Shown here piece after piece: positions 34,056-53,187 of a stretch of 64,000 nt of DNA. The DNA is from Myxococcota bacterium. GTDB taxonomy: Bacteria; Myxococcota_A; UBA9160; JAFDDA01. The stretch's first letter is position 1, and each line of letters begins with the position of its first letter. Below the pieces are notes generated by a model. That model was given only the letters and a program-made list of their open reading frames with translations, was not told the origin of the DNA and made no database searches. The stretch spans positions 1,824,001 to 1,888,000 of the forward strand of contig OZ245817.1 of assembly GCA_965228475.1 (NCBI GenBank), given 5' to 3'. A program made the translations under genes and the position numbers.

Positions 34056-34422
34056 TCCCGGGAGGGGCGGACCGGCCTCTTCACGAAGTGCGCGCGGGCC
34101 TTCGAGTTCGCTGACCCCGTAGCCCGCGGGTCGACGCTTCTTCTTCTTCTTCGAGTCACAGAATGGCGACGAACGTGTGAGCGGCGTGGTGCACGCTGCT
34201 CGTGCATCGGATTCGTGCGCAACGGTGCCGGAACCCGCACCGAAAGCGAACGTTTCGTGCGCGATGGCGACACCCGACCGTTGCCGGCGTCACGGAACGA
34301 AGACGAATCCGTGAAGGAAGCAACAACACGGCTTCCGCCTCGCGTTCCGCGCGCGCACCCAAGATATGATCCGGCCGCTTCTTCGGAGCACGATGTTCCG
34401 CTCGTCGAGGAGAAAGCCCTGC

Positions 34423-35229
34423 ATGATGTGCTGCGGTCCCTCTGGGAGTCTGCCGTTCCTGCGATCGTTCGTCGCGCTCGTCCTGGCCGTCGCTTGGGTC
34501 GGGGTCGCGGGCTCCGCCGCGGGCGAGGCTCGCGTCGACGATTTCCGCGTGAAGGTCGAGAAGTGGGTCGAGACACGGCAGATCCTGTCGGAGGAGAAGT
34601 CCGATTGGGACGCCGAGCGCGAGCTGCTTCGCGCTTCGCGAGACCTGCTCCGTCAGCAGAAGAAAGCGCTGGCGGAAGAGGTCGCGACGCTCGAAGCGAC
34701 GATCACGGAAGCCGACCAGGAGCGCACGGATCTGTTGCTCGACCGCGGGGAGTACAAGCGGTCCACCACCGTCATGGCGGAGCGTCTGCTCGGCCTCGAG
34801 CAGGACGTGAAGGACCTCGTTCCGTGGCTCCCTGAGCCGTTGCAGGCCAAGCTCGAGCCGCTGCTGGCCCAGATCCCCGAAGACCCCGAGGCGAGTCGCG
34901 CGAGCCTCGGCCAGCGGCTGATCAACGTGCTCGGCGTGATCCTCCAGTCCGAGAAGTTCGACTCGACCGCCACGCTGAGCGGAGAGACCCGGGCCGTCCG
35001 GGAGGGCGACACGCAGAAGGTCCAGGTCCGAACGCTCTACTGGGGGCTCGGCCAGGCCGTCTACGTCGACTCCCAGGGCGAGGTGGCCGGGATCGGGAAG
35101 CCCGGTGCGGAGGGCTGGACCTTCGCGGACGAGCCGGGCCTCGCCGACGACGCCGAGCTCCTGCTCGACATCTACGAGGGCAACGTCGACGTGATTCGCT
35201 TCGTCGACGTGCCGGTGACCGTCCGATGA
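34423..35229 (+). CDS. DUF3450-like periplasmic coiled-coil protein
   Basis: Signal peptide, long coiled coil, VRTLYWGLGQAVY; first gene of a TtpC-type TonB operon; start uncertain. Confidence 0.78.
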   Translation: MMCCGPSGSLPFLRSFVALVLAVAWVGVAGSAAGEARVDDFRVKVEKWVETRQILSEEKSDWDAERELLRASRDLLRQQKKALAEEVATLEATITEADQERTDLLLDRGEYKRSTTVMAERLLGLEQDVKDLVPWLPEPLQAKLEPLLAQIPEDPEASRASLGQRLINVLGVILQSEKFDSTATLSGETRAVREGDTQKVQVRTLYWGLGQAVYVDSQGEVAGIGKPGAEGWTFADEPGLADDAELLLDIYEGNVDVIRFVDVPVTVR

Positions 35230-36653
35230 GGCGGCCGGGAAGCGTGGCTCTGGGGTTCCGCCTGCTCGCCTTGCTCGCCGTCGGCAGTCTGCTCGCGCTG
35301 GCGCCCGAGGCGTCGGCCCAGAAGTTCAACGCGGCGCAGGCGGACGTCGACCGGAAACTCGAAGGTTCGCTCCGCGAGCTGGGCGACCTCCGGGCCAAGA
35401 TCGTGAAGGAGAAGGTCCCGCTCTCGAAGAGCGTCTCGCAGCTCGAGAACGAGGTGATCGAGCTGCGCCACGAGCGCGACCGGCTGCTCAAGATCCGCGA
35501 CAGCCGGACCCTCGATCTATCGTCGCTGCGCAAGAGCGTCGAGTCCCTGGCCGACCAGGAAGACTTCATCAACAGCCGGCTCAACGAGTTCGTGCGGGAT
35601 TTCGAGGGTCGCCTCGACATCAGCGAACTGCCGCGGTTCGAAGGCTTGACCGGCCCGGCGAAGCTCGCCGAGAGCAGCGTCAACCTCGACGGCGTGGAGA
35701 AACGCGAGACCCAGCTCGCGGTCGTGAAGGCGGCCCTGCGGCGCCTGCGGGATCAGCTCGGGGGCCACGTCTACGAGGGCGAGGCCCTGAGCCCGGACGG
35801 AGTCCTCACGAAGGGCCACTTCGTCGCGGTCGGGCCGACGGTCTTCTACGTGAGCGACGACGGCGAAGTCAGCGGGCTGGTCGAGAGCCAGCTCAACGCG
35901 GCGGATCCGGTCGTCATCGCGCTGCCGGACAGCGAGGAGGGTCTCCGCAAGATCGTCAGCGGCTCGGCCGGCTCGCTTCCGCTCGACCCCACGCTCGGCA
36001 AGGCGCTGAAGACGGAGAAGGCGGCCAAGGGGCTGCTCGACTACGTCGACGACGGCGGCGTCGTCGGCTACGTGATCCTCGGCCTCGGGCTCGCGGCGCT
36101 GGCGCTGACGCTCTTCAAGGTCTTCGAGATCCTGGGCTTCGTCGTCGCCGAGCCGCGCCAGGTGGACGGGATCCTCGAGGACCTCGAGCGCGGTGACCGT
36201 GCCGCCGCCGGAAACCGCGCGGACCGCGTGGCGGGAATCTCCGGCGAGCTGCTTGCGACCGGCGTCGAGCACGCAGGGGAGAAGCGGGGCGTTCTCGAGG
36301 AGCTGCTCTTCGAGAAGATTCTCATGGCGCGCCCGATGCTCGAGCGCTTCCTCCCGTTCCTGGCGATCACGGCCGCCGCCGCGCCGCTGCTCGGGCTGCT
36401 CGGGACCGTGATCGGCATGATCAAGACCTTCCAGCTCATCACGATCTTCGGAACGGGGGATGCGAAGAGTCTCTCCTCGGGAATCTCCGAGGCGCTCGTG
36501 ACCACGGCGCTCGGTCTGATCGTCGCCATCCCGACGCTGATCCTGCACGGCGCCCTGACCCGGATGGCGAAGCACAAGCTCGGGATGCTCGAGCAGCTCT
36601 CGGTGGCCTTCGTGAACGGTGTCTCCGGGCTGCGCCGGCAGGCCGAGCGCTAG
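35226..36653 (+). CDS. exbB: Long MotA/TolQ/ExbB protein (TtpC-like)
   Basis: Signal + periplasmic coiled coil, then APLLGLLGTVIGMI, GISEALVTTALGL. Confidence 0.9.
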   Translation: MRRPGSVALGFRLLALLAVGSLLALAPEASAQKFNAAQADVDRKLEGSLRELGDLRAKIVKEKVPLSKSVSQLENEVIELRHERDRLLKIRDSRTLDLSSLRKSVESLADQEDFINSRLNEFVRDFEGRLDISELPRFEGLTGPAKLAESSVNLDGVEKRETQLAVVKAALRRLRDQLGGHVYEGEALSPDGVLTKGHFVAVGPTVFYVSDDGEVSGLVESQLNAADPVVIALPDSEEGLRKIVSGSAGSLPLDPTLGKALKTEKAAKGLLDYVDDGGVVGYVILGLGLAALALTLFKVFEILGFVVAEPRQVDGILEDLERGDRAAAGNRADRVAGISGELLATGVEHAGEKRGVLEELLFEKILMARPMLERFLPFLAITAAAAPLLGLLGTVIGMIKTFQLITIFGTGDAKSLSSGISEALVTTALGLIVAIPTLILHGALTRMAKHKLGMLEQLSVAFVNGVSGLRRQAER

Positions 36654-36661
36654 GCCGCGGC

Positions 36662-37243
36662 GTGACGAGGATCTTCGAGATCTGGCAGAGCGGAGGGTGG
36701 GTGATGATCCCGCTGTTCCTGCTCGCGGTCCTGCTCTACGGGCAGGCCTTCCAGCTGCTGATGTACATCCGGCGCGCACGCATCGGCGGCGAGGACGAGG
36801 CGCACTGGGGCCGCTGGGTGCGGGATCCGGAGGAAGCCGAGGGCCGGGTCGCCGAGATCATCCGTTACACCCAGGACGACGTCACGACGTCCGGCCAGAT
36901 CCGCCGGCGCTTCGACGAGGTGCGTCTCGCGATCCTGGCGCTCGTGGACCGGCGCACGCGGTTCCTCGCGAGTCTCGTGGCCGCGGCTCCGCTGATGGGA
37001 CTGCTCGGCACCGTGCTCGGGATGCTGCGCACCTTCTACAGCATCGCGACCGGCGGTGGCGGGGAGACGGCGGGCAGCGTCGCCTCCGGCATCTCCGAGG
37101 CGCTCGTCACGACCCAGACCGGGCTCACGATCGCGCTGCCCGGCCTGTTCATGGTCATGCTCATCCAGCGCCGCCGGCACGACCTCGAGGCGAAGCTCTC
37201 CCGCCTCGAGAGCCTGACGCTCAGCACCATGAGGGTCGAGTAG
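36662..37243 (+). CDS. exbB: MotA/TolQ/ExbB proton channel protein
   Basis: GGWVMIPL, APLMGLLGTVLGM, GISEALVTTQTGL. Confidence 0.92.
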   Translation: MTRIFEIWQSGGWVMIPLFLLAVLLYGQAFQLLMYIRRARIGGEDEAHWGRWVRDPEEAEGRVAEIIRYTQDDVTTSGQIRRRFDEVRLAILALVDRRTRFLASLVAAAPLMGLLGTVLGMLRTFYSIATGGGGETAGSVASGISEALVTTQTGLTIALPGLFMVMLIQRRRHDLEAKLSRLESLTLSTMRVE

Positions 37244-37245
37244 CC

Positions 37246-37647
37246 GTGCCCCGGCGAAGCATCCTCGAGGAGGACGACCCGCTCGAGATCGATCTCTCTC
37301 CGATGATCGACTGCATCTTCATCCTGTTGATCTTCTTCATCGTCGCGACGGTGTTCGTGGAGGAGCAGGGGCTGCAGGTCGCCAAGCCCGACGCGTCGGC
37401 CGCGGCGTCGACCGAAGAGACCGAGAACGTCGTCCTCCAGATCACCGCCGAGAACAAGATCCTGTTCGACGGCAAGGAGATCACGCTGGCCGACGTCGCG
37501 AACCGGGTGCGGGCCGGCGTGCGGGAGCCGGACACGCCGGTCGTCCTGCGGGCGGACGAGAAGTCGGATCACGGCCTGTTCGTGGCGGTCTGGGACGCGG
37601 CGCGGCGGGGTGGGGCGGGGCAGCTCAGCTTCACCACGACGAACTGA
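37246..37647 (+). CDS. exbD: Biopolymer transporter ExbD/TolR
   Basis: [26 protein letters not shown]. Confidence 0.92.
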   Translation: MPRRSILEEDDPLEIDLSPMIDCIFILLIFFIVATVFVEEQGLQVAKPDASAAASTEETENVVLQITAENKILFDGKEITLADVANRVRAGVREPDTPVVLRADEKSDHGLFVAVWDAARRGGAGQLSFTTTN

Positions 37648-37656
37648 GCGGGGAAG

Positions 37657-38061
37657 ATGGCGAACCGCAGCATCCTCGACGAACGCGAAGAGCCGCTCGA
37701 GATCAACCTCGCGCCGATGATCGACTGCGTCTTCATCCTGTTGATCTTCTTCATCGTCACGACGGTCTTCGTCGAGGCGCCGGGCATCGAGATCCTGAAG
37801 CCCGATGCGACGGTGGACGTCGACCTCGAGAAGAACAGCATCCTGATCGGGATCACCGAGGACAACCAGGTGATCTACGGCGGCCGCGTCCTCGGCATCG
37901 CGGGGGTCGGCGCCCGCGTGAAGGCGCTGCTCAATCGCGAAGACCTGCCCGTGATCATCCAGGCCGATTCCCGCGCGGACCACGGCGTCTTCTCCGACGT
38001 CTGGAGCGAGGTCAAGAACGCCGGCGCCAAGAAGATCAGCATCTCGACGCGGAACGACTGA
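37657..38061 (+). CDS. exbD: Biopolymer transporter ExbD/TolR (second copy)
   Basis: [33 protein letters not shown]. Confidence 0.92.
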
Positions 38062-38714
38062 TGTCGAAGCGAACCTTCAAGCTCCCCGACGCCGATTCCG
38101 AGCTGCGCGGCAGCCTGCTGGCCGGTGGCGCCTTCGCGCTCGGCCTCTTCATCCTGATGGCCCTGGCGCAGATGATGGGCGACGTCGGCAAGCCGGACGA
38201 GAGCCTCGTCGACGACCTCCAGGCCTTCCAGGTCCCGGAGATGGAGACCATCGAGGAGGAAGAGGAGCCGCCGCCCGAAGAGGAGGAGCCGCCGGAGCTC
38301 GAGGAGGAGCTCCCCGAGCTCTCCCTCGATCAGCTCGACATCACGCTGAACCCCGGCACCGGGGGCTCGCTCATGGGCGACTTCGGCATGCCCGACTTCA
38401 AGACGCTGAAGGAGATGAGCACCTCCTTCCTCGACTTCTCCCAGCTCGATCAGAACCCGCGGCCCATCGGCGTCTTCGGCTTCAACTTCCCGAGGCGCCT
38501 GCTCAAGGAGCCGGCCAACGGCCGGATCGTCCTGCTCATCAAGCTGAGCTCCGAGGGCAAGGTCCTCGACGTGGAACTCAGCTCCTCGAATCTCCCGCGC
38601 TTCAACGACTTCGTGATGAAGGAAGTGCGGGGTTGGAAGTTCACGCCGCCCACCCAGGACGGGAAGCCCGTGAACGCCGTCGCGCGGCTCCCCATCCCGA
38701 TCCGGGTCCGATAG
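38061..38714 (+). CDS. tonB: Energy transducer TonB
   Basis: N-terminal TM, Glu/Pro linker EEEEEPPPEEEEPP, C-domain FPRRLL..GRIV..WKFTPPTQDGKPV. Confidence 0.9.
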   Translation: MSKRTFKLPDADSELRGSLLAGGAFALGLFILMALAQMMGDVGKPDESLVDDLQAFQVPEMETIEEEEEPPPEEEEPPELEEELPELSLDQLDITLNPGTGGSLMGDFGMPDFKTLKEMSTSFLDFSQLDQNPRPIGVFGFNFPRRLLKEPANGRIVLLIKLSSEGKVLDVELSSSNLPRFNDFVMKEVRGWKFTPPTQDGKPVNAVARLPIPIRVR

Positions 38715-38744: not shown

Positions 38745-40112
38745 ATGAAGCGTCTTCCCATCCTCACGTTCGTACTCGCTGCCGCCCTCGGCGTGGCACC
38801 CGTGGCCCTCGGGCAGGCGCGCCCGTGGCAGGGCGCCTCCGTCATCGACGACCCCGAATGGCAGGCGCGCTTTCTCGGGAGCTACGGATTCCTCTCCGGG
38901 GCGGAGCCGGACATCCTCGAGGACGAAGTCGAGCTCCTGCGCGAAGTGATCGAGCTGATGAAGACGGACCGCGCGGCGGCGGCGAAGCGGCTCGCCAAGG
39001 ACATCGGCCCCGACAGCAGCGCCGCGATCGATTTCGTTCTCGCGAACCTCTACTTCCAGAACGAGGCCCTCGACGACGCGGCCAAGTACTACCGCAGCGC
39101 CATCGAGAAGTTCCCGGACTACCGCCGCGCCCACAAGAACCTCGGCCTCCTGCTCGTGCAGCAGGGGGACTTCGCCGCGGCGCTCGCCCACATCTCGAGC
39201 GCCGTTGAACTCGGCGATCGGGACGGCCGCAACTACGGCCTCATGGGGTACGCCTACATCAACCAGGAGAACTACCTGGCGGCCGAGCAGGCCTACCGGA
39301 ACGCGATCCTCCAGGACCCGAAGACCAAGGATTGGCAGGTCGGGCTCGCCCGCTGCCTGCTCCAGATGGAGCGCTACAAGGAAGCCGTCTCCCTCTTCGA
39401 CAAGCTCCTGGCCGAGAACCCGAGCGACCCGACCTACTGGATGCTCCAGGCAAACGCCTATCTCGGGCTCGAACGGCCCCAGGCCGCGGCGGTGAACCTC
39501 GAGGCCGTGCGCATGATGGGGCGGGCGCAGACGAGCAGCCTCATCCTGCTCGGGGACATCTACATGACCCTCGGCGTTCCCGAGCTCGCCCGCAGCGCCT
39601 ACCTCGAGGTGATCGAGAAGGATGCGAAGGGGGCGCAGTTCAAGACGGCGTACCGGGCCTCGGACCTGTTGATCCGGACACGCTCCTTCGACGACGCAGC
39701 GACGATCCTCGCCTCCATCGACCGCCGCTACCAGGGCAAGCTCAGCGACGAGCAGGAGCTCGAGGTCCTGACGCTGAAGGCGAAGGTCGCTCGGGGGAAG
39801 GGCAACGAGAAGAAAGCCGCGCGAATCCTCGAGTCGATCGTGAAGCGGGACGGCACGCGCGGGGACGCGCTCCTCGAGCTCGCCACGTACTACCGCACGC
39901 AGGGGAACGTCGAGAAGGCCTTCTTCCTGCTCGAGCGCGCCGAGAACCTCGAGGACTTCGAGTACCAGGCGCTCCTGCACCACGCCCAGTTCAGCGTCGG
40001 CGAGAAGGACTACGCCAAGGCGGCCGAGGTGCTCCGCCGGGCGCTGCAGATCAAGACCGAGCCGCGCGTCGAGCGGTTCCTCGCCCGCGTCGAGAGCGCG
40101 GCCGGGCGCTGA
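38745..40112 (+). CDS. Periplasmic tetratricopeptide-repeat protein
   Basis: Signal peptide and multiple TPR-like helical repeats. Confidence 0.88.
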   Translation: MKRLPILTFVLAAALGVAPVALGQARPWQGASVIDDPEWQARFLGSYGFLSGAEPDILEDEVELLREVIELMKTDRAAAAKRLAKDIGPDSSAAIDFVLANLYFQNEALDDAAKYYRSAIEKFPDYRRAHKNLGLLLVQQGDFAAALAHISSAVELGDRDGRNYGLMGYAYINQENYLAAEQAYRNAILQDPKTKDWQVGLARCLLQMERYKEAVSLFDKLLAENPSDPTYWMLQANAYLGLERPQAAAVNLEAVRMMGRAQTSSLILLGDIYMTLGVPELARSAYLEVIEKDAKGAQFKTAYRASDLLIRTRSFDDAATILASIDRRYQGKLSDEQELEVLTLKAKVARGKGNEKKAARILESIVKRDGTRGDALLELATYYRTQGNVEKAFFLLERAENLEDFEYQALLHHAQFSVGEKDYAKAAEVLRRALQIKTEPRVERFLARVESAAGR

Positions 40113-40143: not shown

Positions 40144-43100
40144 ATGAAGCTGCTGCATCGGACATGGGCTCGAAGCGGAACGGAGCGCCGGCAACCCGGC
40201 TGGCGCCTCTTGGCGGCGCTGCTCGGCCTTCTCCTGATGGCGGGGCCGAGCGTCGCGCGGGCCGAGGAAGAGACCGGCCGGGAAGGCGTTCTCGGCGGGC
40301 AGGTCTTCGACGGAGACAGCGGGGATCCGGTCCCGGGCGTGACGGTCATCCTCACCTGGCCCGAGCCCGAGGACGGCAGCGAAGCCCGGCAGGCGATCGA
40401 GACGACCGATGCCGACGGTGCCTACCGCTTCGGCTCGGTCCCCGCCGGCTACTACAGCGTGACCTTCTCGAAGACCGGCTACCGCGCCGCCAAGATGACC
40501 CGCTTCGAGGTGCTCGCCGGGGAGGTGAACCGGGCCGACTTCCCGCTCCAGCCCGCGCCCGTCGACACCGCGGACTCCGTACTCGAGCTCGAGGCCTTCG
40601 TCGTGGAGGCGGAGGTCGTCGAGGACATCCTGAACGAGCTCGAGCTGCGCATGGACTCGGACCAGCTCCTCAACGTGATGAGCGCCGAGGACTTCTCGAA
40701 GTTCGCCGCGAGCGACGTCGCCGACGCACTCAAACGGGTCTCGGGCGTCAACGTCGTCGAGGGCCAGTTCGCGATCATCCGGGGTCTCGACGATCGCTAC
40801 AACTCGACCCTCTACAACGGCGCGCCCGTCCCGAGCCCGGACCCGGACCGGCAATCCGTCCAGCTCGACCTCTTCCCCTCGGACATCGTCAGCAACCTGA
40901 TCATCTCCAAGACCTTCGCCCCGGACCTGCCGAGCAACTCCTCGGGCGGCGCCATCAACATCCTCACCCACGACTACCCGGAGCGGTTCGAGTTCAAGCT
41001 CAGCGGCGGCACGGGCTGGAACGACAACGCCGTCCCGACCTTCCTCGACTTCGTGAAGGAGTCGGCCACCGGCGTCGACAAATCCGGCCTCAGCGACACG
41101 ATCGAGAGCGACTACGGCGGCCTCCTCGGCGGCCGCTACGAGATCTTCGGCCGGGAGGTTCGGCTGAAGCTCGTCGGGAATCGCGAGACGGACTACGAGA
41201 CGGAGGAGGGGATGTTCGAGGAGCGGGAGCCGGGCGACCCTCCGGACAATCCCGATCCCTTTGGAAACTGCGCCGTGATTCCGAGATTTGTCTTCGGCGT
41301 CGGATTCGTGTGCGACGTCCCGCTTGTCGTCTTCCCATCGGACCTGAACAATGGCCTCCTAGGCCTCACAGGTGGCCGGTTCGAGCAGCAGAAGAGTCGT
41401 CGCGAGGTTCAGCTGACCGCCTACGGCGGCGCGGGCTTCGATCTCGACCGAGAGGGTGCCCACCAGATCGACGGCTCCGTTTTCTACACGCGAAAGAAAG
41501 AGGGGTCAGTCGAGCTTCGGAGCAACGGGTTCCTTCCGGGGGTCGACCTTTCGGAGCTTGACCCGACCGACATCAACAACAGCGGGGATTTCGATGATTT
41601 TGTCGCACTCCCCAAGTCCTGGGTCGCGCGGTCCATCCGGCAGTCCGTCCTCGACACCGCAGCGGATGGTCCGGTCTTCTTCACGAGTTTCTCTGAGAGC
41701 CGGGCATTCGAGCGAGAACGTGATCTTCGCGTCTATCAGGCGAACGGCGACCACGACTTCGGGCGACTCCTGGAAGGGCTTCGCGCGAGCTGGGCGTGGA
41801 ACCGCTCTGAGACGAACCAGAACGAATCTGTCTACGGATTGCGATACTTTGCGGAACCTCCGAACGCTGCCGACGTCGGTGTGACCGACCCTCCGACCGA
41901 CCCGACGCTATATCCCCTCGAATTCGACGATGTGCTCGGTCCGGGCCCCCGCTGTCAAAGCGAAACGGGCATCGAATCCACGCAGAACTGTTTCGTCGCG
42001 AACAATGGAATCCTCTTCAGCGAGACCTCGATCTTCGAAGAGCAGGACTTCTTTCGGTTCGATGGAGAGTTCGAACGGGGGCTGTTCAGCTGGCTGACCT
42101 TCTCGTTGAAGGGCGGCGCTTGGTGGGAGGAAGCCGAGCGAGACGTGCAGGCGGGCTTCCTCGAGAACGTTTCCGTCGACGGCGAGAGTAACCAGTTTGC
42201 AATCATTGCCCCGACCGAGGAGGCGCTCGGCGGGGCACCCTTCGAAGACTGTGACGATGGGAACTGCCTAGATCGCGATGAGGACGATGTGTTCCAGTTC
42301 GTCCGGAGCAACACGAACCGCTCTGAACGCGACATCTTCGCTTGGCATCTGAACGGCAAGGCGTCCTTCTTTGACCGGCTCGATCTGCTGGCGGGGCTCC
42401 GTCGGGAGCGGATCGAGATCCGTTCCTTCAACAATCCCTTCGGGGATGGCAGTGGGGCGCCCACGTTCGGGATTCCGCGGATATTCCCGAGTCGATTCAC
42501 GCTATTCGATCGTCTCGACAATCCTGATCGCCCAAACGAGGCCGACCCCCTGAACCCCTTCAACGAGGTTGACCCAATGGATCCGCGGGTGACGGACCCG
42601 GATTTCGCGTTCAATGACCAACTTCTCGGCATCCAGGTTCCCATGGTCCCCTGTCCCACTGCCGATCGGCCCGATCGGATGTGCTCCGATCTCCGGCGCG
42701 GAGATCTCGAAGGTCTGCTCAACGGCGTGATCGATGAGGCATTCATCCTGCCTTCCTACGGTGTTGCCCTTCGGCCCCTCGAGGGTCTCACGTTCCGTGG
42801 CGCCTACTCGCGAACGGTCGCGAGACCCTCGTTTCGTGAGCTCGGATACTACGTAACGGTCGAGACTGGGACCGATGACCGAACGGTCGGGAACCCGCAG
42901 GTAAAGCTCTCGCCGGTCGAGAGCTGGGACCTTCGTGGCGAGTACGTCTGGGGAGACCTTGGGGATATCGTTGCAGTCAGCCTCTTCAAGAAGAACATCG
43001 ACGAACCGATCGAGCGGATCGTCGTTCGTGATCCCCTGGTCCTGACAGGCGATGCAGAGTTTCGAACGTTCTTCAACAATCCCAATACTGCGTCTCTGCG

Positions 43101-43740
43101 GGGCTATGAGATCGAGGCGCGGAAGAGCCTTGGGTTCCTATCGTTGAGTTTCCTGGATCGGTTCGACATCAAGCGACCCCGGTGGCTGAAGGGCTTCGAC
43201 TTCCTCCAGTACCTCTCGGTTGGCGGCAACTTCACGAAGATCGACGCCACCGTGAAACGGACGGATGGTGCGGTTCGTGGGGCGGCCGCCTATTTCGCAA
43301 ATGTGCCATCAGGGACCTTCGAGTTCGAAAACATCGAACCTGAGCGAAGGCTTTTCAACCAGCCGGAGTGGATCCTGAATGCGGATATCAGCTTCGACCA
43401 CCCCGATTGGGGCACGAAGCTTACTCTGGCGTACTTCGAGATCAGCGACATTCTCGATGCGGCTGGCACCGCGTCCTTGAACAACTCGGGCGAGCCGTTC
43501 TCCTTCACCTTGGATCAGTACAAGGACTCGTTCCATCAGCTGGACTTCATCGCGAGCCAGAAGGCGCGGATCGAGTTCCTGCGGGCCGATCTGACGGTGA
43601 AGCTCAGCATCAAGAACCTGACGGACAGCACGCGCCGTCTGATCTACGACCCCAACCAGCTCGTCGACCGGATCGCCGAGCGCGAGTACAAGAAGGGCCG
43701 CGACTACTCGCTCTCGTTCTCGTGGAAGTGGGAGTGGTAG
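40144..43740 (+). CDS. TonB-dependent receptor with N-terminal carboxypeptidase-regulatory-like domain and large loop insertions
   Basis: Signal; GQVFDGDSGDPVPG; plug DVADALKRVSGV..IRGL..RYN..LDLFP; YSRTVARPSFREL; GNPQV; terminal YSLSFSWKWEW. Confidence 0.93.
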   Translation: MKLLHRTWARSGTERRQPGWRLLAALLGLLLMAGPSVARAEEETGREGVLGGQVFDGDSGDPVPGVTVILTWPEPEDGSEARQAIETTDADGAYRFGSVPAGYYSVTFSKTGYRAAKMTRFEVLAGEVNRADFPLQPAPVDTADSVLELEAFVVEAEVVEDILNELELRMDSDQLLNVMSAEDFSKFAASDVADALKRVSGVNVVEGQFAIIRGLDDRYNSTLYNGAPVPSPDPDRQSVQLDLFPSDIVSNLIISKTFAPDLPSNSSGGAINILTHDYPERFEFKLSGGTGWNDNAVPTFLDFVKESATGVDKSGLSDTIESDYGGLLGGRYEIFGREVRLKLVGNRETDYETEEGMFEEREPGDPPDNPDPFGNCAVIPRFVFGVGFVCDVPLVVFPSDLNNGLLGLTGGRFEQQKSRREVQLTAYGGAGFDLDREGAHQIDGSVFYTRKKEGSVELRSNGFLPGVDLSELDPTDINNSGDFDDFVALPKSWVARSIRQSVLDTAADGPVFFTSFSESRAFERERDLRVYQANGDHDFGRLLEGLRASWAWNRSETNQNESVYGLRYFAEPPNAADVGVTDPPTDPTLYPLEFDDVLGPGPRCQSETGIESTQNCFVANNGILFSETSIFEEQDFFRFDGEFERGLFSWLTFSLKGGAWWEEAERDVQAGFLENVSVDGESNQFAIIAPTEEALGGAPFEDCDDGNCLDRDEDDVFQFVRSNTNRSERDIFAWHLNGKASFFDRLDLLAGLRRERIEIRSFNNPFGDGSGAPTFGIPRIFPSRFTLFDRLDNPDRPNEADPLNPFNEVDPMDPRVTDPDFAFNDQLLGIQVPMVPCPTADRPDRMCSDLRRGDLEGLLNGVIDEAFILPSYGVALRPLEGLTFRGAYSRTVARPSFRELGYYVTVETGTDDRTVGNPQVKLSPVESWDLRGEYVWGDLGDIVAVSLFKKNIDEPIERIVVRDPLVLTGDAEFRTFFNNPNTASLRGYEIEARKSLGFLSLSFLDRFDIKRPRWLKGFDFLQYLSVGGNFTKIDATVKRTDGAVRGAAAYFANVPSGTFEFENIEPERRLFNQPEWILNADISFDHPDWGTKLTLAYFEISDILDAAGTASLNNSGEPFSFTLDQYKDSFHQLDFIASQKARIEFLRADLTVKLSIKNLTDSTRRLIYDPNQLVDRIAEREYKKGRDYSLSFSWKWEW

Positions 43741-43753
43741 GGCGCGCGGCGTT

Positions 43754-45397
43754 CTAGTTGACCCGGATCGGGACGGGGAGCCGGGCCCGCGCCGCCACGC
43801 GCTCTCCTCCGCGCGTGGGCGGTGTGAAGCGCCAGCCCTCGACCGCGTCGACGATGTAGCGGTCGAAGTCCGGCAGGTCCGAGGCTTCGACCTCAGCGTG
43901 GACGACGTCGCCCTCGGGACTCAGGTCGATCAGCAGGACGACCCTGCCGTGGGCGCGCTTGCGCAGGAGGCGGCGCGGGAACTCGAACCCGCCAGGCTCG
44001 ATCGGCCGAGGCACGGCGTCGAGCTCGCTCCAATGGGCGGGTGTCGCGGGGTCGGGCTCGGAGGCTGCGAGCTCGACGGCCGTGGGTTCAGGGTCCGGCG
44101 CAGGGCGCGTTGCCTCGGCGACGGCCGAGGCGATGGCGTCGCGCCGCTCGGTAAGGCGGGTCTCGAAGGCATCCAGACGCGCGCCATCGCACGGGCCGAG
44201 GCCACAGAAGAGATCGTGGAAGACCGAGGCGGCGACCTTGGTGGCCGACGTGGAGCCGTCGACGACGAGGCTCACCACCGCAATCCGGGGCGCCTCGGCG
44301 GGAGCGACGCCGATGAACCAGCGGTAGCGGCCCGTGGGGTTCGTGCCGCTGAGCGTGCCCGTCTTTCCCGAGACGCGGACGCCTCCGAGGAGCGGTTCGC
44401 CCCGGGCATCGTGGAAGGCGCTTCGCGCCGTGCCGTGCTCGGTGACGTTGACGAGGACCTCTCGCAGCTCGGTGGCGACCTCGGCGGTCCAGACGGGCTG
44501 GGGGGCGGCGCGCTCCGGCGGCTGCATCGGCCGGCCTTCCGCATCCTTCACCCCGGCGATCCAGTAGGGCTCGACGAGTTCGCCCCGCGCGAGCAGCGAG
44601 GCGAGGCGGGCTGCGGACAGCGGGCTGAGGAAGGACCCCGCCAGGCCTGAGCCGAGGCGCCCGAGCGCGAGCGGTCCGTCCAGCGGCTCGAGCCGGCCTG
44701 CGCGGTGCATGGCGCCTGGGACTTCGAGCAGGCCGATCGCCCGGATGGCGCGGATGAGCGCCGTTTCACCGAGGTCCCGGACCGCGAGCCGCGCGAAGCA
44801 CTGGTTGTTCGAGGTGGCCATCGCCTGGGCGAAGGAGACGGAGCGGCCTCCTTCTGCCGGTGGTTCGAGCTGGCTCGTGTAGAGCTCGTAGGGGCTCCCG
44901 TCGTAGCGGCACGTTCGTGCCGTGGCGGTCGGAGCCTCCTGGAGCACGGCGGCTGCGGTCACGACCTTCATCAGGGATGCGGTGGGGTAGGTGCCCGTCG
45001 CGGGGAAGCGATCCGGGTCGGTCGAGACATAGGCGAGCAGGGCGCCGCTCCCCGGATCCATCACCACCACGTGGCCCAGGTCGACGCCGGACCGGATCAG
45101 CGTGTCGCGAATGCGCCGCTCGAGCGAAAGGTCGAGCGTGTACTCGACCTCGTAGTAGGCGTCCGTTTCCGCGCCGGGTGCCTCGGGCTCCCAGGGCAAT
45201 CGCTCGACCCAAGGCAGGCTCGCCCCGGTCCCGAGTGCCGCTTCCGGCTCGGGTGCGAGGCCGCGAACTCCAGGCGGGAGGAGCGTCGCCCAGGCGGGGC
45301 TCGTCGAAGTCGGTGTCTCGGCACGCGCGGCCGTACCGCTGCCCATGTGAAGAACGAGCAGCGCCAGCGACGCGGCGAGGGCCGGAGCGGGGCGCAT
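43754..45397 (-). CDS. Penicillin-binding transpeptidase domain fused to a TonB C-terminal domain
   Basis: Signal peptide; SxxK (SLMK), SxN (SNN), KTG; Pro/Ala linker; C-terminal FPRRLL..WRFTPPTRGG. Confidence 0.88.
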   Translation of the reverse strand: MRPAPALAASLALLVLHMGSGTAARAETPTSTSPAWATLLPPGVRGLAPEPEAALGTGASLPWVERLPWEPEAPGAETDAYYEVEYTLDLSLERRIRDTLIRSGVDLGHVVVMDPGSGALLAYVSTDPDRFPATGTYPTASLMKVVTAAAVLQEAPTATARTCRYDGSPYELYTSQLEPPAEGGRSVSFAQAMATSNNQCFARLAVRDLGETALIRAIRAIGLLEVPGAMHRAGRLEPLDGPLALGRLGSGLAGSFLSPLSAARLASLLARGELVEPYWIAGVKDAEGRPMQPPERAAPQPVWTAEVATELREVLVNVTEHGTARSAFHDARGEPLLGGVRVSGKTGTLSGTNPTGRYRWFIGVAPAEAPRIAVVSLVVDGSTSATKVAASVFHDLFCGLGPCDGARLDAFETRLTERRDAIASAVAEATRPAPDPEPTAVELAASEPDPATPAHWSELDAVPRPIEPGGFEFPRRLLRKRAHGRVVLLIDLSPEGDVVHAEVEASDLPDFDRYIVDAVEGWRFTPPTRGGERVAARARLPVPIRVN

Positions 45398-45714
45398 GGG
45401 CCAGAAGATATCGCCTGATTTCGCGGAGTTGGCGGGTCTCGCCCGTCCTTCGGGCAGGAATCCGCGACGGCGGCGTTGCGATTTCGTGAGGGTCGTGACG
45501 ATCCCGTGAGCCCCTGCAACACGGGGGCAGGTCCCGCCACTTCAACCTCGAAAAGTCGTCACCCAAGCGTGCCCGCCGGATGGCCGGAGATCGTGGGGGA
45601 TGGCGGCGGATCGGAAGACCCGTCCGAGGCGTGTTCTTAATCTGCGCACCGTTCGGGCCGGAAGAGTCCGGTCGGGACGCAACAGCAGGAACCCAACAGG
45701 GAGCTACCCCAATC

Positions 45715-47403
45715 ATGAAACTGAAATTGTTTGCAGCTCTGGTGCTCGCGGCCGCCGGATTCGCCGGCAACGCGCAGGCGCAGACGGTCGTTGCCGCGGA
45801 CGTCACGTCCGACACGACCTGGAGCGGCGTGATCGTGCTCGACACGGTCATCTTCGTTCGCGACGGCGCGACCCTGACCATCCTCCCCGGTACGATCGTT
45901 CGCGGTCAGCCCCGCTCGGGCCCCGTGGTCGTCGGTTCGACGGTGGGCTCGCCCGGCGCGCTCGTGGTGACCCAGACCGGCCGCATCGTCGCCGATGCGG
46001 ACGAAGCCAACCCGATCATCTTCACGACCGCGGCCGTCGACAACGACAACGACGGCGTGGCCGACGACGATGACGCCAACAACTTCGAGGACTCCTGGGT
46101 CGCCGGCGACACCTTCCTCGACGACACGCCGGCCACGGCGCCCCTCGCTCCGCTGAACACGGCGGGTGAGTCCAACGTCGCCCTCTGGGGTGGCGTGGTG
46201 CTGCTCGGCAACGCGCCGACGAACCTCGCCAACGAGTGCGGCACGGGCTACGGCACCTGCGTGATCGAGGGCCTGACGGTTCCGGGCTTCCCGGCGGCCT
46301 TCGCGACCTACGGTGGCGTGGACCCGAACGACAGCTCGGGCATCCTCGAGTACGTCTCGATCCGCCACGCGGGCGACGAGATCGGCAACGGCAACGAGCT
46401 CAACGGCCTCACCCTCGGTGGCGTCGGCCAGGGCACCAAGATCGCCTTCGTCGAGATCTACGCGAACTTCGACGACGGCTTCGAGTGGTTCGGCGGCACG
46501 GCCTCCGGCTCGAACCTGCACGTCCTGTTCGTGGGCGACGACTCGCTCGACGCCGACCAGGGCTACACGGGCGTCAACCAGTTCGTCTTCGTCGTCATGG
46601 GCTTCTTCGACGAGAACGACGACGACAGCTACGGCTCGCGCTCCGGTGACAAGGCCGGCGAGCTCGACGGCGACGACTGGCGCCCGGACGACCCGGCGCT
46701 GTTCGACAACGTGAACGTGCGCATCAATCAGCCGCTCACCGCGATCGACTCGACGCCCTGGCCGCTCTCGCAGTTCCAGTTCCACAACGTGACGGTCATC
46801 GGCTCGACGCCGGACGCCGGGCAGGAATTCACGCCCAGCTTCCCGGCTTCGACCAACGACGGCATCCAGTGGCGCAACGGTGGCGCGGGCTACGTGTTCC
46901 ACTCCATCGTCGTGAACACCGGCGCCGAGGGCGGGATCGAGATCGATTCCGACATCGGTGACGGTTCGCCGGGCTTCGACACCACGAACAACGTGGCGAA
47001 CGGCCTGGTGGCGCTGGTCTGCTCGACCCTCGACGACGGTGCTGCGCTCTCGGCGGACGAGTCGACGGCGGTGGCCAACGGCAACGCGCTCGCCGACACG
47101 CTCGGTGGCACGCCGCCGGCCTCGAACAACGTGGTCAACAGCCCGCTGTTCCCCGGCCTCGTGAACGAGGACCAGACCTTCGACCCGACCGGTGATGCGG
47201 CCGGCAAGCTCGTGAGCACGCTCAAGAGCTCGCCGATCAACCCGCGGCCGAACTTCGGCCTCACGGGAATCATCGGTTGCCCGACGATCGACAACAAGCT
47301 GGTGACCCCGGTGACGTACCGCGGCGCGTTCGATCGCACCGCCCCGCGCCTCTGGACCACCGGTTGGACGGTCCTGAGCCTCTCCGGCCTGATCGCAGAC
47401 TGA
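45715..47403 (+). CDS. Acidic secreted beta-rich protein of a family typically found beside TonB-dependent receptors
   Basis: AGGAG RBS; signal ending AQA-Q; ATLTILPGT, PIIFT, WGGVVLLGNA, DSSGILEYVSIRHAG, ELNGLTLGGVG, DDGFEWFGG, GDDSLDADQGY, YRGAF..WTTGWT. Confidence 0.8.
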   Translation: MKLKLFAALVLAAAGFAGNAQAQTVVAADVTSDTTWSGVIVLDTVIFVRDGATLTILPGTIVRGQPRSGPVVVGSTVGSPGALVVTQTGRIVADADEANPIIFTTAAVDNDNDGVADDDDANNFEDSWVAGDTFLDDTPATAPLAPLNTAGESNVALWGGVVLLGNAPTNLANECGTGYGTCVIEGLTVPGFPAAFATYGGVDPNDSSGILEYVSIRHAGDEIGNGNELNGLTLGGVGQGTKIAFVEIYANFDDGFEWFGGTASGSNLHVLFVGDDSLDADQGYTGVNQFVFVVMGFFDENDDDSYGSRSGDKAGELDGDDWRPDDPALFDNVNVRINQPLTAIDSTPWPLSQFQFHNVTVIGSTPDAGQEFTPSFPASTNDGIQWRNGGAGYVFHSIVVNTGAEGGIEIDSDIGDGSPGFDTTNNVANGLVALVCSTLDDGAALSADESTAVANGNALADTLGGTPPASNNVVNSPLFPGLVNEDQTFDPTGDAAGKLVSTLKSSPINPRPNFGLTGIIGCPTIDNKLVTPVTYRGAFDRTAPRLWTTGWTVLSLSGLIAD

Positions 47404-47485: not shown

Positions 47486-48271
47486 ATGAAGAAACTGATT
47501 CTGTTGGCATCCATCATTGCGCTCGCGCCGGCCGGCTCCGCCAAGGCGGCGATGATCGCGGGCTTCGATCACAACTCCTACGTCGCAGGCTTCTTGTCGA
47601 CGGACGGCGCGACCCTCGTCGACACGCTCGACGCGCGCTACTCGGACTTCGACCCGACCTTCGGTGCGGGCGCGGAAGCCGGCGCCTTCGGCACGCTCTA
47701 CATGGACGGCTCGTTCGGCTCCACGGCGACGCCGCTCGACGGCTCGGACCCCTACACCTCGACCTCGGGCAGCCTTTCCTCGAACGTGACGGCTCCGGTG
47801 AACGGTGAGCCGGCCGGCGACGTGCCCTTCGGCTCGACGACGGTGCTGACTTCCGAGGGCGTGGCTCCGTTCGGTTCCGAGATCAAGATGGTGGCCAACG
47901 CGGCGACCAGCGTCGTCTACTCGGCGGACCTGTCCTCGATCGCCTCGGTCGGTGACAACTGGAACCTGAGCTTCGCGGGCCAGACGCCGATCGGTACGGC
48001 CACGGTCGGCATCGAGTTCTCGACGGACGGCGCGAACTACGTGGTGGTCGGTGACGAGACCCTGAACACCGTGGACTCGACCTTCAACGTCGTCCTCGGC
48101 GGTGGCCCGTCGGCCCAGGCGTTCATCCGCCTGACCTTCGACGCCAACCAGCCCTTCATCGACAACCTGGCGATCTTCGCCGACGTGTCGGCCGTGCCGG
48201 AGCCGGCGAGCCTCGCGCTCGTCGCCAGCGGCCTGGTCGCTCTCGCGACGGTCCGCCGCCGCCGCGCCTAG
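47486..48271 (+). CDS. PEP-CTERM surface protein
   Basis: MKKLILLAS signal; IDNLAIF; VPEPASLALVASGLVALATVRRRRA. Confidence 0.93.
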   Translation: MKKLILLASIIALAPAGSAKAAMIAGFDHNSYVAGFLSTDGATLVDTLDARYSDFDPTFGAGAEAGAFGTLYMDGSFGSTATPLDGSDPYTSTSGSLSSNVTAPVNGEPAGDVPFGSTTVLTSEGVAPFGSEIKMVANAATSVVYSADLSSIASVGDNWNLSFAGQTPIGTATVGIEFSTDGANYVVVGDETLNTVDSTFNVVLGGGPSAQAFIRLTFDANQPFIDNLAIFADVSAVPEPASLALVASGLVALATVRRRRA

Positions 48272-49840: not shown

Positions 49841-50458
49841 CTAGAACTGGCCGCCTTCGAGGCGGGGGTTCAGGAAGCGTCGCTCGCGGATGGGTGCGCC
49901 GCCGGACCACTCCTTGGGCGGTCCCGGAGGCGGGGCCGGCTCGGGGGTGAATCCGAGATCCCGGAGGGCTTCGAGGTCGCCCTCGGCGCGGAGCTGGTCG
50001 ACGTAGGGCACGTTGCCGAGCGCCGCCATCTCGAAGACCGTCACGCCGGCCTTGCGCTCGTTCGGGATGCCGGTCACCCGGCCTGCGTAGACGTCGTTCA
50101 GGTACTCCCAGTCGGCGCGCCGGAAGGCGTCGTCGCGGTCGACACGAGGGCTTCTCGGGACGACGTCATCGGCGCCGGCGCTCCAGAGGCGCGGGCTCCG
50201 GTCGTTTCGCTCGAGGGCAGGGCGGGCGGTCTCGCGGGGCGCCGTCTCCCTCCGCGGATCCGCGCCGCGCCGCGCGAGTTCGGCCATGACCTGGGCTTCG
50301 AACTCGTGGGCGAGGTAGGCCGCTTCGTCGCTCACCGGAGCGGGCCGTGCGGGCGGGCGGGCATCGGGCCTCTCGGAGCGCTCCCAGGGCACGAACCAGG
50401 CACCGGCGGCGACGCCGCAGAGCGCGAGGACGGTCGCGATTTCGAGTCGACGGGCCAA
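49841..50458 (-). CDS. Hypothetical membrane-anchored protein
   Basis: TTG start after GGAGAG; N-terminal hydrophobic IATVLALCGVAAGAWFV; protein-like tail DWEYLNDVYAGR. Confidence 0.55.
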   Translation of the reverse strand: MARRLEIATVLALCGVAAGAWFVPWERSERPDARPPARPAPVSDEAAYLAHEFEAQVMAELARRGADPRRETAPRETARPALERNDRSPRLWSAGADDVVPRSPRVDRDDAFRRADWEYLNDVYAGRVTGIPNERKAGVTVFEMAALGNVPYVDQLRAEGDLEALRDLGFTPEPAPPPGPPKEWSGGAPIRERRFLNPRLEGGQF

Positions 50459-50562
50459 ACGGGTCTCTCCCGCCGGCAGTGTATCGACGGAACGGAGTCG
50501 GCCCGGTTGCAGCCGTGCGACGATGCGGTGAAGGAATCGCGTTCTTCGGGGCGCAGCGCGCC

Positions 50563-51573
50563 CTAGCCGCGGAGTTCGGCCATGGCCGCGGCGCGTTCTC
50601 CTGCGGGCAGGAAGTCGAGGGCGCTCATCAGCCGGTCGACGCGGCCGCCGAAGCGCTCCTTCATGCGGGCGACCACCTCGCCGGGCGCCGCCACGACGGC
50701 GAACTGTTCGAGGATCTCGTCCGTGATGAGGGTGCCCATCTCTTCCCACTTGCCCTGCTTCGAGAGGTGGTTGAGCTCGGTCTGGAGCTCGCCCCAGCCG
50801 TGGGCTTCGAGCACGCCGCGGTAGGCGGGCGTCGAGCCGTAGAAGGCGATCTGCCGCGTGATGCCGGTGCGAGCGGCCTCGAAGGCCTTCTCGTCCTCCC
50901 CGGTGACGACGAAGCCGGGCAGGGTGAGGGTGAAGTCGCTGCGGCTGCGGCCGGCCTTCTCGAGGCCGCGCTCGATGGCGGGGAGCGTCACCTCGTCGAG
51001 GTACTTCGGCGTGGTGAAGGCGTGCACGATCATGCCGTCGGCGACTTCGCCCGCCGTCTCCGTCATGCGCGGGCCGACGGCCGCGAGGTAGACGCGCGGC
51101 GGGCCGTATTCCGTGTCCGTCGGCGTGAACATGGGCGTCATCAGCGTGTGGGTGTAGAACTCGCCGCGGAAGTCGAGGGGCTTGCCCTCGTACCAGTTCG
51201 CCCAGATCGCGCGGGTGGCGAGGATGAGTTCGCGCATGCGGGCCGCCGGGCTCGACCACGGCATGCTGAAGCGCTTCTGGATGTGCGGACGGATCTGCGA
51301 GCCGAGCCCGAGGATGAAGCGGCCCTTCGAGTAGGCGTTCAGGTCGTGGCCGAGGTTCGCGAGCAGCATCGGGTTGCGCGCGAAGGCGACCGCGATCGAG
51401 GTCATGAGTTCGATGCGCTCGGTGTGCTCGGCGGCGAGGGTGAGCGGCAGGAACGGGTCGTGGGCCATCTCGGCGGTGATCAGGCCGTCGAAGCCTGCTT
51501 GCTCGAGGGCACGGGCGCGTTCGGCGACCTCCCCGAGGCCTCCCATCAAGCCGGCATCGATCTTCATCGGCAT
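50563..51573 (-). CDS. LLM-class probable F420-dependent oxidoreductase
   Basis: HDPFLPL, AVAFARNP, GRFILGLGSQIRPHI, FYGSTPAY. Confidence 0.9.
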   Translation of the reverse strand: MPMKIDAGLMGGLGEVAERARALEQAGFDGLITAEMAHDPFLPLTLAAEHTERIELMTSIAVAFARNPMLLANLGHDLNAYSKGRFILGLGSQIRPHIQKRFSMPWSSPAARMRELILATRAIWANWYEGKPLDFRGEFYTHTLMTPMFTPTDTEYGPPRVYLAAVGPRMTETAGEVADGMIVHAFTTPKYLDEVTLPAIERGLEKAGRSRSDFTLTLPGFVVTGEDEKAFEAARTGITRQIAFYGSTPAYRGVLEAHGWGELQTELNHLSKQGKWEEMGTLITDEILEQFAVVAAPGEVVARMKERFGGRVDRLMSALDFLPAGERAAAMAELRG

Positions 51574-51590
51574 CCTCTCCTCGCGCCGGA

Positions 51591-53110: not shown

Positions 53111-53187
53111 GGGGCCTCCAATTGGCTCCATCCATACGATAGAAACGGCTCTTGTGGAAGGGCCTATTTCGGGCGAGTGTGGAAACC

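Follow-up and report, generated by a model that had tools for sequence, protein, structure and literature searches.

The DNA stretch considered here, hereafter the window, consists of 64,000 nucleotides of contig OZ245817.1 (positions 1,824,001 to 1,888,000 of the forward strand) in the Myxococcota bacterium assembly GCA_965228475.1, and it contains at 43754-45397 a gene for a predicted penicillin-binding protein (PBP) in which the transpeptidase domain is followed by the C-terminal domain of TonB (TonB_C). The architecture appears to be a conserved and uncharacterised means by which peptidases of the cell wall are attached to a particular kind of transport system in the outer membrane, namely the Ton cluster that lies beside the gene. 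In the explanation proposed here, held with about even confidence, a peptidoglycan peptidase is tethered through its TonB_C domain to the transport system, the probable site being the unusual Ton box of the receptor, and remodels the wall locally. The strongest clue to this function is an analogy, namely a parallel fusion in which a probable LAS/M15-like peptidase domain precedes a TonB_C of the same subfamily.

Both domains of the window protein are recognized by Pfam (Table 1), with TonB_C (PF03544) matched at residues 472-542 (E 3e-9), and the NCBIfam annotation is consistent with this, TIGR01352 being found with an E-value of 3.3e-10. By BLASTP, residues 455-546 align without gaps to residues 125-216 of the cluster TonB (38061-38714), with 51 identical and 69 similar positions out of 92 (E 1e-32). 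A preliminary description of this DNA had read the protein as a transpeptidase, a linker and a TonB-like C-domain, which the Pfam and BLASTP results bear out, and its hand count of 51 identities in 91 positions was essentially right. The three catalytic motifs that it had named are present as S141-L-M-K144, S196-N-N198 and K345-T-G347, and the gene lies, as it had stated, tail-to-tail with that of the TonB-dependent receptor (40144-43740, plus strand), the two being convergent with 13 bp between the stop codons. The signal peptide that it had proposed agrees with a short hydrophobic stretch at the N-terminus of 35 of 36 family members, one of which has a lipobox-like match, and this remains a heuristic reading.

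The fusion is genuine. The two Pfam domains occur together in 114 of the 120 best relatives (the best 120 of 391 matches), which derive from many independent assemblies mostly labelled Myxococcota; moreover, the interval 43600-45600 is covered in one piece and with 0 differences by contigs of two runs from two studies, one of these runs being possibly the source of the window's genome, and a third contig bridges the linker region. A chimeric assembly, a concern raised in the preliminary description, is ruled out by the two-domain relatives and by the unbroken contigs of two studies, since the fusion recurs in related genomes and contigs span the gene. The database relatives number in the hundreds and bear generic names such as 'TonB family protein' and 'penicillin-binding transpeptidase domain-containing protein'. 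A literature search found no publication on the transpeptidase-TonB_C architecture and, in PMC12204202, which deals with the evolution of TonB and TolA, a term search gave no occurrence of 'transpeptidase' or 'penicillin'.

The catalytic domain appears to be of the PbpA type and to have lost the membrane anchor and the pedestal of class B PBPs. The SxxK, SxN and KTG motifs are invariant in 36/36 aligned fused proteins and in 116/116 fused and stand-alone relatives, and none of these 116 proteins lacks Cys163 or Cys200. The closest solved relative is PBPA of Mycobacterium tuberculosis, both in sequence (E 9.4e-23) and in fold (E 4.4e-20, 26% identity), followed by other class B transpeptidases, i.e. 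Eggerthella 4MNR, SpoVD and PBP3. A kinship with the OXA enzymes or the BlaR sensors is not found, the second motif being S-N-N and not SxV and the top sequence and fold matches being all class B PBPs. Only two Pfam families match the fused protein at E <= 0.01, PBP_dimer not being one of them, and the place usually taken by the class B pedestal, from the signal peptide to the catalytic domain, is only about 80 residues long. On the heuristic grounds of the signal-peptide-like N-terminus and the missing PBP_dimer, the protein is read as soluble rather than membrane-anchored. The LLPPGxR motif (residues 40-45, about 45263-45280) is nearly invariant in the fused and stand-alone forms.

The AlphaFold2 (AF2) model of the fused protein, obtained with a 36-sequence alignment, has a mean predicted local distance difference test (pLDDT) value of 90.4 and a predicted template modelling score of 0.75; the catalytic domain is followed by a confident helix (407-429), a low-confidence segment rich in Pro, Ala and Glu (about 430-455) and the TonB_C fold. 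The linker includes a Cys398/Cys403 pair that is invariant across the same alignment. With its catalytic motifs kept throughout the family, a PbpA-like fold and a confident model, the fused enzyme looks active. The window genome has five other loci with a transpeptidase domain, and the fused protein is therefore an extra PBP. PBPA works with a polymerase of the SEDS (shape, elongation, division and sporulation) family; no SEDS gene (RodA/FtsW) was seen among the Pfam-scanned neighbours of the fused gene, no search aimed at SEDS having been made.

The same PBP family exists in a stand-alone form that stops after the catalytic domain, TonB_C being absent in 27/27 proteins scanned. One form or the other is encoded in 188 of 225 genomes of the class and the fused form in 18 of them; in a phylum-wide sample the family was detected in 50 of 301 genomes, all 50 of which fall inside the class, in the window's order or in a single family. 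In the tree of the catalytic domains, with two other PBPs of the window genome as outgroup, the fused rows (50/50) form one clade (Shimodaira-Hasegawa-like approximate likelihood ratio test 99) nested among 66 stand-alone rows, which indicates that the fusion arose once; the stand-alone periplasmic PBP thus appears as the evident ancestor of the fused form. Upstream of the stand-alone genes a NifU-like gene is found at 57 of 66 loci, and HAD (47/66), PilZ (42/66) and AlgH-like (37/66) genes are also frequent neighbours; the only functional hints offered by these neighbourhoods are housekeeping genes. At E <= 1e-40 the window genome (G000) encodes the fused form only. The stand-alone PBP is near-universal in the class, yet it was not found in G000 or in G006, of the same genus, where it seems dispensable or replaced.

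The window genome has six TonB_C matches, and the domains of the fused protein and of the cluster TonB are 56% identical over 91 columns. Over six genomes the mean identity between fused and cluster TonB domains is 49.6%, against about 20% to other TonB_C domains, and in the TonB_C tree fused and cluster domains form one clade (support 94/92) that excludes 16 further TonB_C domains from these genomes; inside this clade seven cluster TonBs form a clade of their own (91/98). The claim that the C-domain is a paralog of the neighbouring TonB is hence correct at the level of the subfamily, as the domain clusters with the cluster TonBs and not with unrelated ones, and has to be amended as regards age, as the domain is not a recent copy of the TonB of its own genome. 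In fact, the C-domain of the window protein is closest to those of other fused proteins (71% to P0002, 56% to its own TonB) and within-genome identities between fused protein and TonB (46-56%) are no higher than those between genomes, which shows that the duplication is old. A recent duplication within the genome, or gene conversion with the neighbouring tonB, is ruled out by these identities and by the grouping with fused proteins.

An alignment of 129 rows, made up of TonBs, PBP fusions and M15-like fusions, has 21 columns with one residue shared at >= 80% by the three groups and zero columns conserved differently between them, the pattern that retention of a common partner by all three would produce. 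In each group conservation is highest in the C-terminal strand (ARLPIPI), to which we assign, by homology, the pairing with the Ton box. In approximately unbiased (AU) tests neither the TonB C-domains (p 0.92) nor all the enzyme-fused C-domains (p 0.87) were rejected as single clades, results that are compatible with one tag lineage.

The same conservation bears on a different tether, in which TonB_C would bind the C-domain of the cluster TonB or the peptidoglycan instead of the receptor, so that the enzyme is carried along by TonB or is located in the wall at the point of TonB's passage. TonB C-domains can dimerise and bind peptidoglycan, fused and TonB domains belong to one subfamily with identical conserved positions, and in three genomes the fused gene comes directly after tonB. 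This arrangement is nevertheless decidedly unlikely, since no separate TonB of the subfamily was detected in 5 of the 18 genomes with a fused PBP and since the element under the strongest conservation is the very strand assigned to Ton-box pairing.

A search for further enzymes on this TonB_C subfamily, run with the 98-residue domain over 1.84 billion representatives, returned mostly unrelated proteins in which TonB_C is repeated 3-8 times in tandem, for example P0201, P0202, P0259, P0211 and P0325, which are 350-1000 aa long and about 30% identical to the window domain; P0325 combines an M56 peptidase with three TonB_C domains. Sixteen matches of unusual length or repeat number were scanned and, among these, the single-domain ones are TonBs, PBP fusions or fragments, with two apparent exceptions. 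The latter, P0269 (a metallo-beta-lactamase fragment) and P0210 (an ApbA fragment), were rejected as new architectures because they read as chimeric gene calls, in which an unrelated N-terminus precedes the end of either a PBP fusion or a TonB.

The fused gene is strongly linked to the Ton cluster. Cluster genes were present within the fetched flanks of 8 of 14 fused loci and of 0/66 stand-alone loci (one of the latter, L071, has a single unrelated TPR match), so that the link to the receptor cluster claimed in the preliminary description is upheld, and in the class sample the fused gene lies within 13 kb of cluster genes in 9 of 18 fused genomes. Its position varies: it is found between tonB and the TPR gene, directly after tonB, in L025, L090 and G353; L016 and L021 have it upstream of the motor genes, and L017 and L030 have it in divergent orientation to these. 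In L023 and L118, from the window's own family, the fused gene stands on the same strand as its two neighbours, between the receptor gene and that of a secreted, possibly beta-helical protein; the window has it at this place too, but inverted. Co-occurrence is marked as well: the TonB_C subfamily, in any architecture, occurs in only 29 of 225 class genomes, and a separate TonB of the subfamily accompanies the fused PBP in 13 of 18; these genomes are draft metagenome-assembled genomes of close kin, in which absences are not proof and counts are descriptive only.

The putative Ton box of the receptor varies with the type of TonB. All of the orthologues from fusion-bearing clusters (7/7) share L147, L149, E150, F152, V153, V154, E155 and A156 without change, and the other five receptors of the window genome have a different sequence at this place. 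Four sister clusters (L125-L128, in G022, G035, G041 and G033) have the same order, with orthologous receptor and beta-helix genes and no fused peptidase; their TonB is divergent (E 1e-5 to 1e-9 to that of the window) and their Ton box reads (D/G)VEE(F/I)(V/L)(V/I). TonB type and Ton box thus appear to co-vary, and the fusions to go with one variant. For the complex between receptor residues 137-300 and the fused TonB_C, structure prediction gave a weak score of 0.35 (runs 0.35, 0.35 and 0.51; best of three controls 0.00). Of 157 solved complexes 116 reach the mark on this scale, as do 2 of 215 mismatched pairs; at values <=0.60 only 18 of the 157 solved complexes reach it, together with both of the mismatches that passed. 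The runs agree in >=70% of contacts, with a partner pLDDT >=78. Docking of the fused TonB_C at the Ton box by strand addition would be the most likely mode of attachment, and the complex prediction lends it weak support.

The second fusion family was met in G013, where a gene at L116:6086-6925 (minus strand), between tonB and the TPR gene and hence in the slot that the PBP fusion has elsewhere, encodes a 279-residue protein with a signal peptide, a domain of about 100 residues, a linker and a TonB_C of the same subfamily. This architecture, of about 280 aa, is represented by about 44 database clusters (P0122-P0165), and 2 of the 225 genomes of the class encode it at full length. The N-terminal domain has the invariant motifs VTSxxRxxxDQ, SQHxxGLAWD and YxHVQR, SQHxxGLAWD and HVQ being present in 32/32 proteins. 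Its model (pLDDT 76.9) is matched by VIA to the Streptomyces Zn D,D-peptidase 1lbu (Z 8.1 over 99 residues, root-mean-square deviation 3.6) and then to VanXYg (7.3), Hedgehog (7.2), the endolysins LysB4 and Ply500 (7.0) and VanYB (6.3), while its TonB_C is matched to 6i97_E with a Z of 9.8; Foldseek finds LysECD7, ChiX, 1lbu and LdcB at E-values of 6.5e-3 to 0.08. The N-domain is therefore probably of the LAS/M15 kind.

The presence of two unrelated peptidoglycan-peptidase folds on one targeting domain makes peptidoglycan peptides the likely substrate, rather than a role specific to beta-lactams. In a wider form of the proposal, considered tenable at somewhat less than even confidence, the TonB C-domain would, after a single duplication, have become in this lineage of Myxococcota a portable address tag that delivers at least two unrelated peptidoglycan peptidases, a serine PBP and a zinc LAS/M15-like enzyme, to the Ton box of one transporter, and ligand-induced exposure of the Ton box might then gate recruitment.

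The parallel fusion also bears on two roles centred on beta-lactams or on signalling. The penicillin-binding domain could be a gatekeeper that traps or hydrolyses beta-lactam-like compounds entering via the receptor, as its full set of penicillin-binding motifs and the acyl-enzymes that its closest solved relatives form with beta-lactams would allow; no beta-lactam affinity is known for the M15-like fusion, no resistance or regulatory genes are linked, and the stand-alone ancestor is a gene of housekeeping context in a family carried by most genomes of the class, which leaves this role very improbable. A regulator, in which the fused protein is an unenergised decoy on the Ton box that brakes or gates transport while the PBP domain senses the state of the wall or a beta-lactam, would explain a protein that keeps the conserved binding-domain positions of TonB and has no membrane helix for coupling to ExbB/ExbD. 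In addition, BlaR1-type proteins use penicillin-binding sensors, and M56 proteins often carry TonB_C according to the accessible part of 10.64898/2026.04.08.717257. A pure decoy, however, needs no intact catalytic motifs, kept here in every family member examined, and could not be replaced by an M15-like peptidase, which does not bind beta-lactams, so that a regulator is highly unlikely. Of the two functions suggested in the preliminary description, remodelling of peptidoglycan is accordingly favoured, and pure competition with TonB is less so given the invariant motifs and the second peptidase fold on the same TonB_C.

If the substrate is a stem peptide, it may belong to the cargo and not to the cell's own wall: the receptor could import peptidoglycan fragments or D-Ala-D-Ala peptides, for example from prey or detritus, and a D,D-peptidase of the PBP or M15 type, placed by TonB_C at the periplasmic opening of the receptor, could trim them on emergence. 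The linkage and co-occurrence data fit such processing equally, the characterised relatives of both fused folds act on peptidoglycan stem peptides, and the gene of a secreted, possibly beta-helical and maybe glycan-active protein always follows the receptor gene. Cargo processing is still judged unlikely, for the Pfam-scanned cluster neighbours include no muropeptide permease, amidase or other recycling gene, and sister clusters with the same receptor and beta-helix protein and another Ton box do without a fused peptidase.

The tethering at the Ton box that we prefer can be set out as follows. The fused protein would be a soluble periplasmic acyl-serine D,D-peptidase that gained its TonB_C by one old duplication of the C-domain of the cluster TonB. 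As a targeting module, TonB_C would bind what the cluster TonB binds, i.e. the Ton box LxLEAFVVEA, by beta-strand addition, and the helix and the flexible linker of about 25 residues would let the catalytic domain reach the peptidoglycan under the receptor. There the enzyme may locally trim or cleave cross-links or stem peptides ending in D-Ala-D-Ala, by which room for the transport machine would be made or maintained. The binding partner, the substrate and hydrolysis in place of cross-linking are all three points that we infer.

Several observations weigh against this explanation. Class B type domains usually cross-link, and the case for hydrolysis comes solely by analogy with the M15-like fusion, whose peptidase domain itself falls below the Pfam cut-offs (DUF5715 1.5e-4, Peptidase_M15_3 0.1). 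An enzyme docked at the Ton box would be a competitor of TonB, a conflict that calls for an explanation, and the weak complex score may be remembered, since TonB-receptor complexes have already been solved. The TonB_C trees, with about 91 columns, leave the branching order of the fused and TonB lineages unsettled. As for co-occurrence, the five fused-PBP genomes in which no separate subfamily TonB was detected are G334, G304, G038, G389 and G459, and a receptor orthologue went undetected in two (G334 and G038) of the four searched, G459 being outside that search; on the other side, 14 of the 29 class genomes with a subfamily TonB_C have no fusion, and in G006, 89% complete, the PBP family in either form, the receptor and the TonB were all undetected. 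By these counts the cluster does not require the fusion, nor does the fusion guarantee the cluster, and the incomplete overlap in both directions makes the fused enzyme an accessory of this cluster type and not an obligatory part of it.

Table 1. Parts of the fused gene and of the adjoining Ton cluster, in window coordinates.
Feature	Position	Strand	Basis or remarks
Whole fused gene	43754..45397	minus	ATG start, 547 aa; predicted periplasmic PbpA-type penicillin-binding domain and TonB C-terminal domain
Residues 1-26, likely Sec signal peptide MRPAPALAASLALLVLHMGSGTAARA, no lipobox	45320..45397	minus	hydrophobicity heuristic; cleavage site by eye
Residues 27-107, short N-terminal region	45077..45319	minus	LLPPGxR (40-45), EVEYTxD strand (84-89); pLDDT 60-86
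Residues 108-396, transpeptidase (acyl-serine transferase) domain	44210..45076	minus	Pfam PF00905 E 4.8e-27
Residues 397-454, linker	44036..44209	minus	AF2 secondary structure and pLDDT; 36-sequence alignment
Residues 455-547, TonB_C domain, cluster-TonB subfamily	43757..44035	minus	Pfam, BLASTP, trees, shared conserved columns
DUF3450	34366..35229	plus	Pfam
Long MotA/ExbB	35226..36653	plus	Pfam
ExbB	36662..37243	plus	Pfam
ExbD-like	37240..37647	plus	cross-matches with ExbD, not Pfam
ExbD	37657..38061	plus	Pfam
Cluster TonB, 217 aa, N-terminal membrane helix, TonB_C 142-212	38061..38714	plus	Pfam, NCBIfam
TPR protein, TtpD-like position	38745..40112	plus	Pfam
TonB-dependent receptor, 1198 aa: CarboxypepD_reg 50-136, Plug 170-269, barrel	40144..43740	plus	Pfam; orthologues about 50% identity
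Putative Ton box L147-E-L-E-A-F-V-V-E-A156 of receptor	40582..40611	plus	conservation in orthologues
Secreted 563-aa protein, possibly pectate-lyase-like beta-helix	45712..47403	plus	protein-atlas feature score 0.98 to Beta_helix_4 clusters, lead only

The cluster of the window is ordered as DUF3450, long MotA/ExbB, ExbB, two ExbD, TonB, TPR, receptor, inverted fused PBP and possible beta-helix protein (Table 1). The gene of the last, a 563-aa protein with no Pfam or NCBIfam match, adjoins the receptor gene in all the relatives seen (L013, L023, L025, L090, L118 and L125-L128). A promoter and terminator scan of 43500-45800 returned no sites. Directly after the beta-helix gene, at 47486-48271 (plus strand), a secreted protein of 261 aa with a PEP-CTERM sorting signal (Pfam E 1.6e-5) is encoded, and at 49841-53131 (minus strand) a 1096-aa open reading frame, probably over-extended, joins an N-terminal GntR to a class I/II aminotransferase in a MocR-type layout. 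The window genome has only six Plug-domain receptors, three of which are each beside a TonB_C gene of their own (L119/L003, L122/L001 and L123/L002), and this suggests dedicated TonB-receptor pairs.

TonB must cross the peptidoglycan layer to pull on outer-membrane receptors, and the way in which Ton systems deal with this layer is a subject of current work; PMC12204202 cites a 2024 paper on what peptidoglycan does in the Ton motor. A wall-active enzyme joined to a receptor-recognising domain would offer a direct handle on how Ton systems handle peptidoglycan. If the proposed tethering is true, the Ton system would bring its own wall-remodelling enzyme, as secretion systems and flagella do with dedicated wall hydrolases, and the TonB C-domain would prove usable for targeting in general. 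Since only uncultured Myxococcota of marine type have the family, its practical reach is modest.

Among known systems, PBPA of M. tuberculosis (PDB 3LO7, 3UN7) and other PbpA-type proteins are like the window protein in sequence, in fold and in the SxxK, SxN and KTG motifs. PBPA, however, is membrane-anchored, whereas the window protein has a signal peptide, about 80 N-terminal residues, no PBP_dimer and a C-terminal TonB_C. The stand-alone Myxococcota PBP, itself uncharacterised, is closer, with 45-56% identity over residues ~38-410 and with LLPPGxR and all the catalytic residues in common; unlike the window protein, it ends after the transpeptidase domain and lies in a housekeeping neighbourhood, never adjoining a Ton cluster. 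At the other end of the protein the comparison is with the TonB transducers (1XX3, 6FIP; complexes 2GSK, 2GRX and 6I97), whose solved C-domains are matched by that of the window protein at E-values of 1e-5 to 1e-7. In contrast to TonB, the fused protein has, by a heuristic reading, no N-terminal membrane helix, due to which it cannot couple to ExbB/ExbD, and an enzyme of about 370 residues replaces the periplasmic spacer.

As regards the gene cluster, the DUF3450 and TPR proteins of the window are presumably the counterparts of TtpB and TtpD, respectively. The TonB2-type system of Vibrio is composed of TtpB, TtpC, ExbB, ExbD, TonB2 and TtpD and its gene order is that of the window, as given in the accessible part of PMC6957404, so that DUF3450, long MotA/ExbB, ExbB, ExbD, TonB and TPR follow one another in the same order in both. 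In comparison with that description, the window cluster differs in a second ExbD, in the linked giant receptor and beta-helix protein, and in the fused peptidase.

Among the texts consulted, the nearest published analogue of the fusion is the M56 (BlaR1-like) protein with a C-terminal TonB_C, the second commonest M56 architecture in the accessible part of 10.64898/2026.04.08.717257, in which TonB_C is likewise appended to a protein other than TonB. M56 proteins are membrane metalloproteases acting as signal transducers and, as far as that part of the report goes, transpeptidase and TonB_C are alternative sensors in them and are not joined, unlike in the window protein. The kinds of element that meet here are all known, i.e. 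PBPs, proteins bearing TonB_C and envelope machines with dedicated wall enzymes, and what appears to be new is their combination in one protein family.

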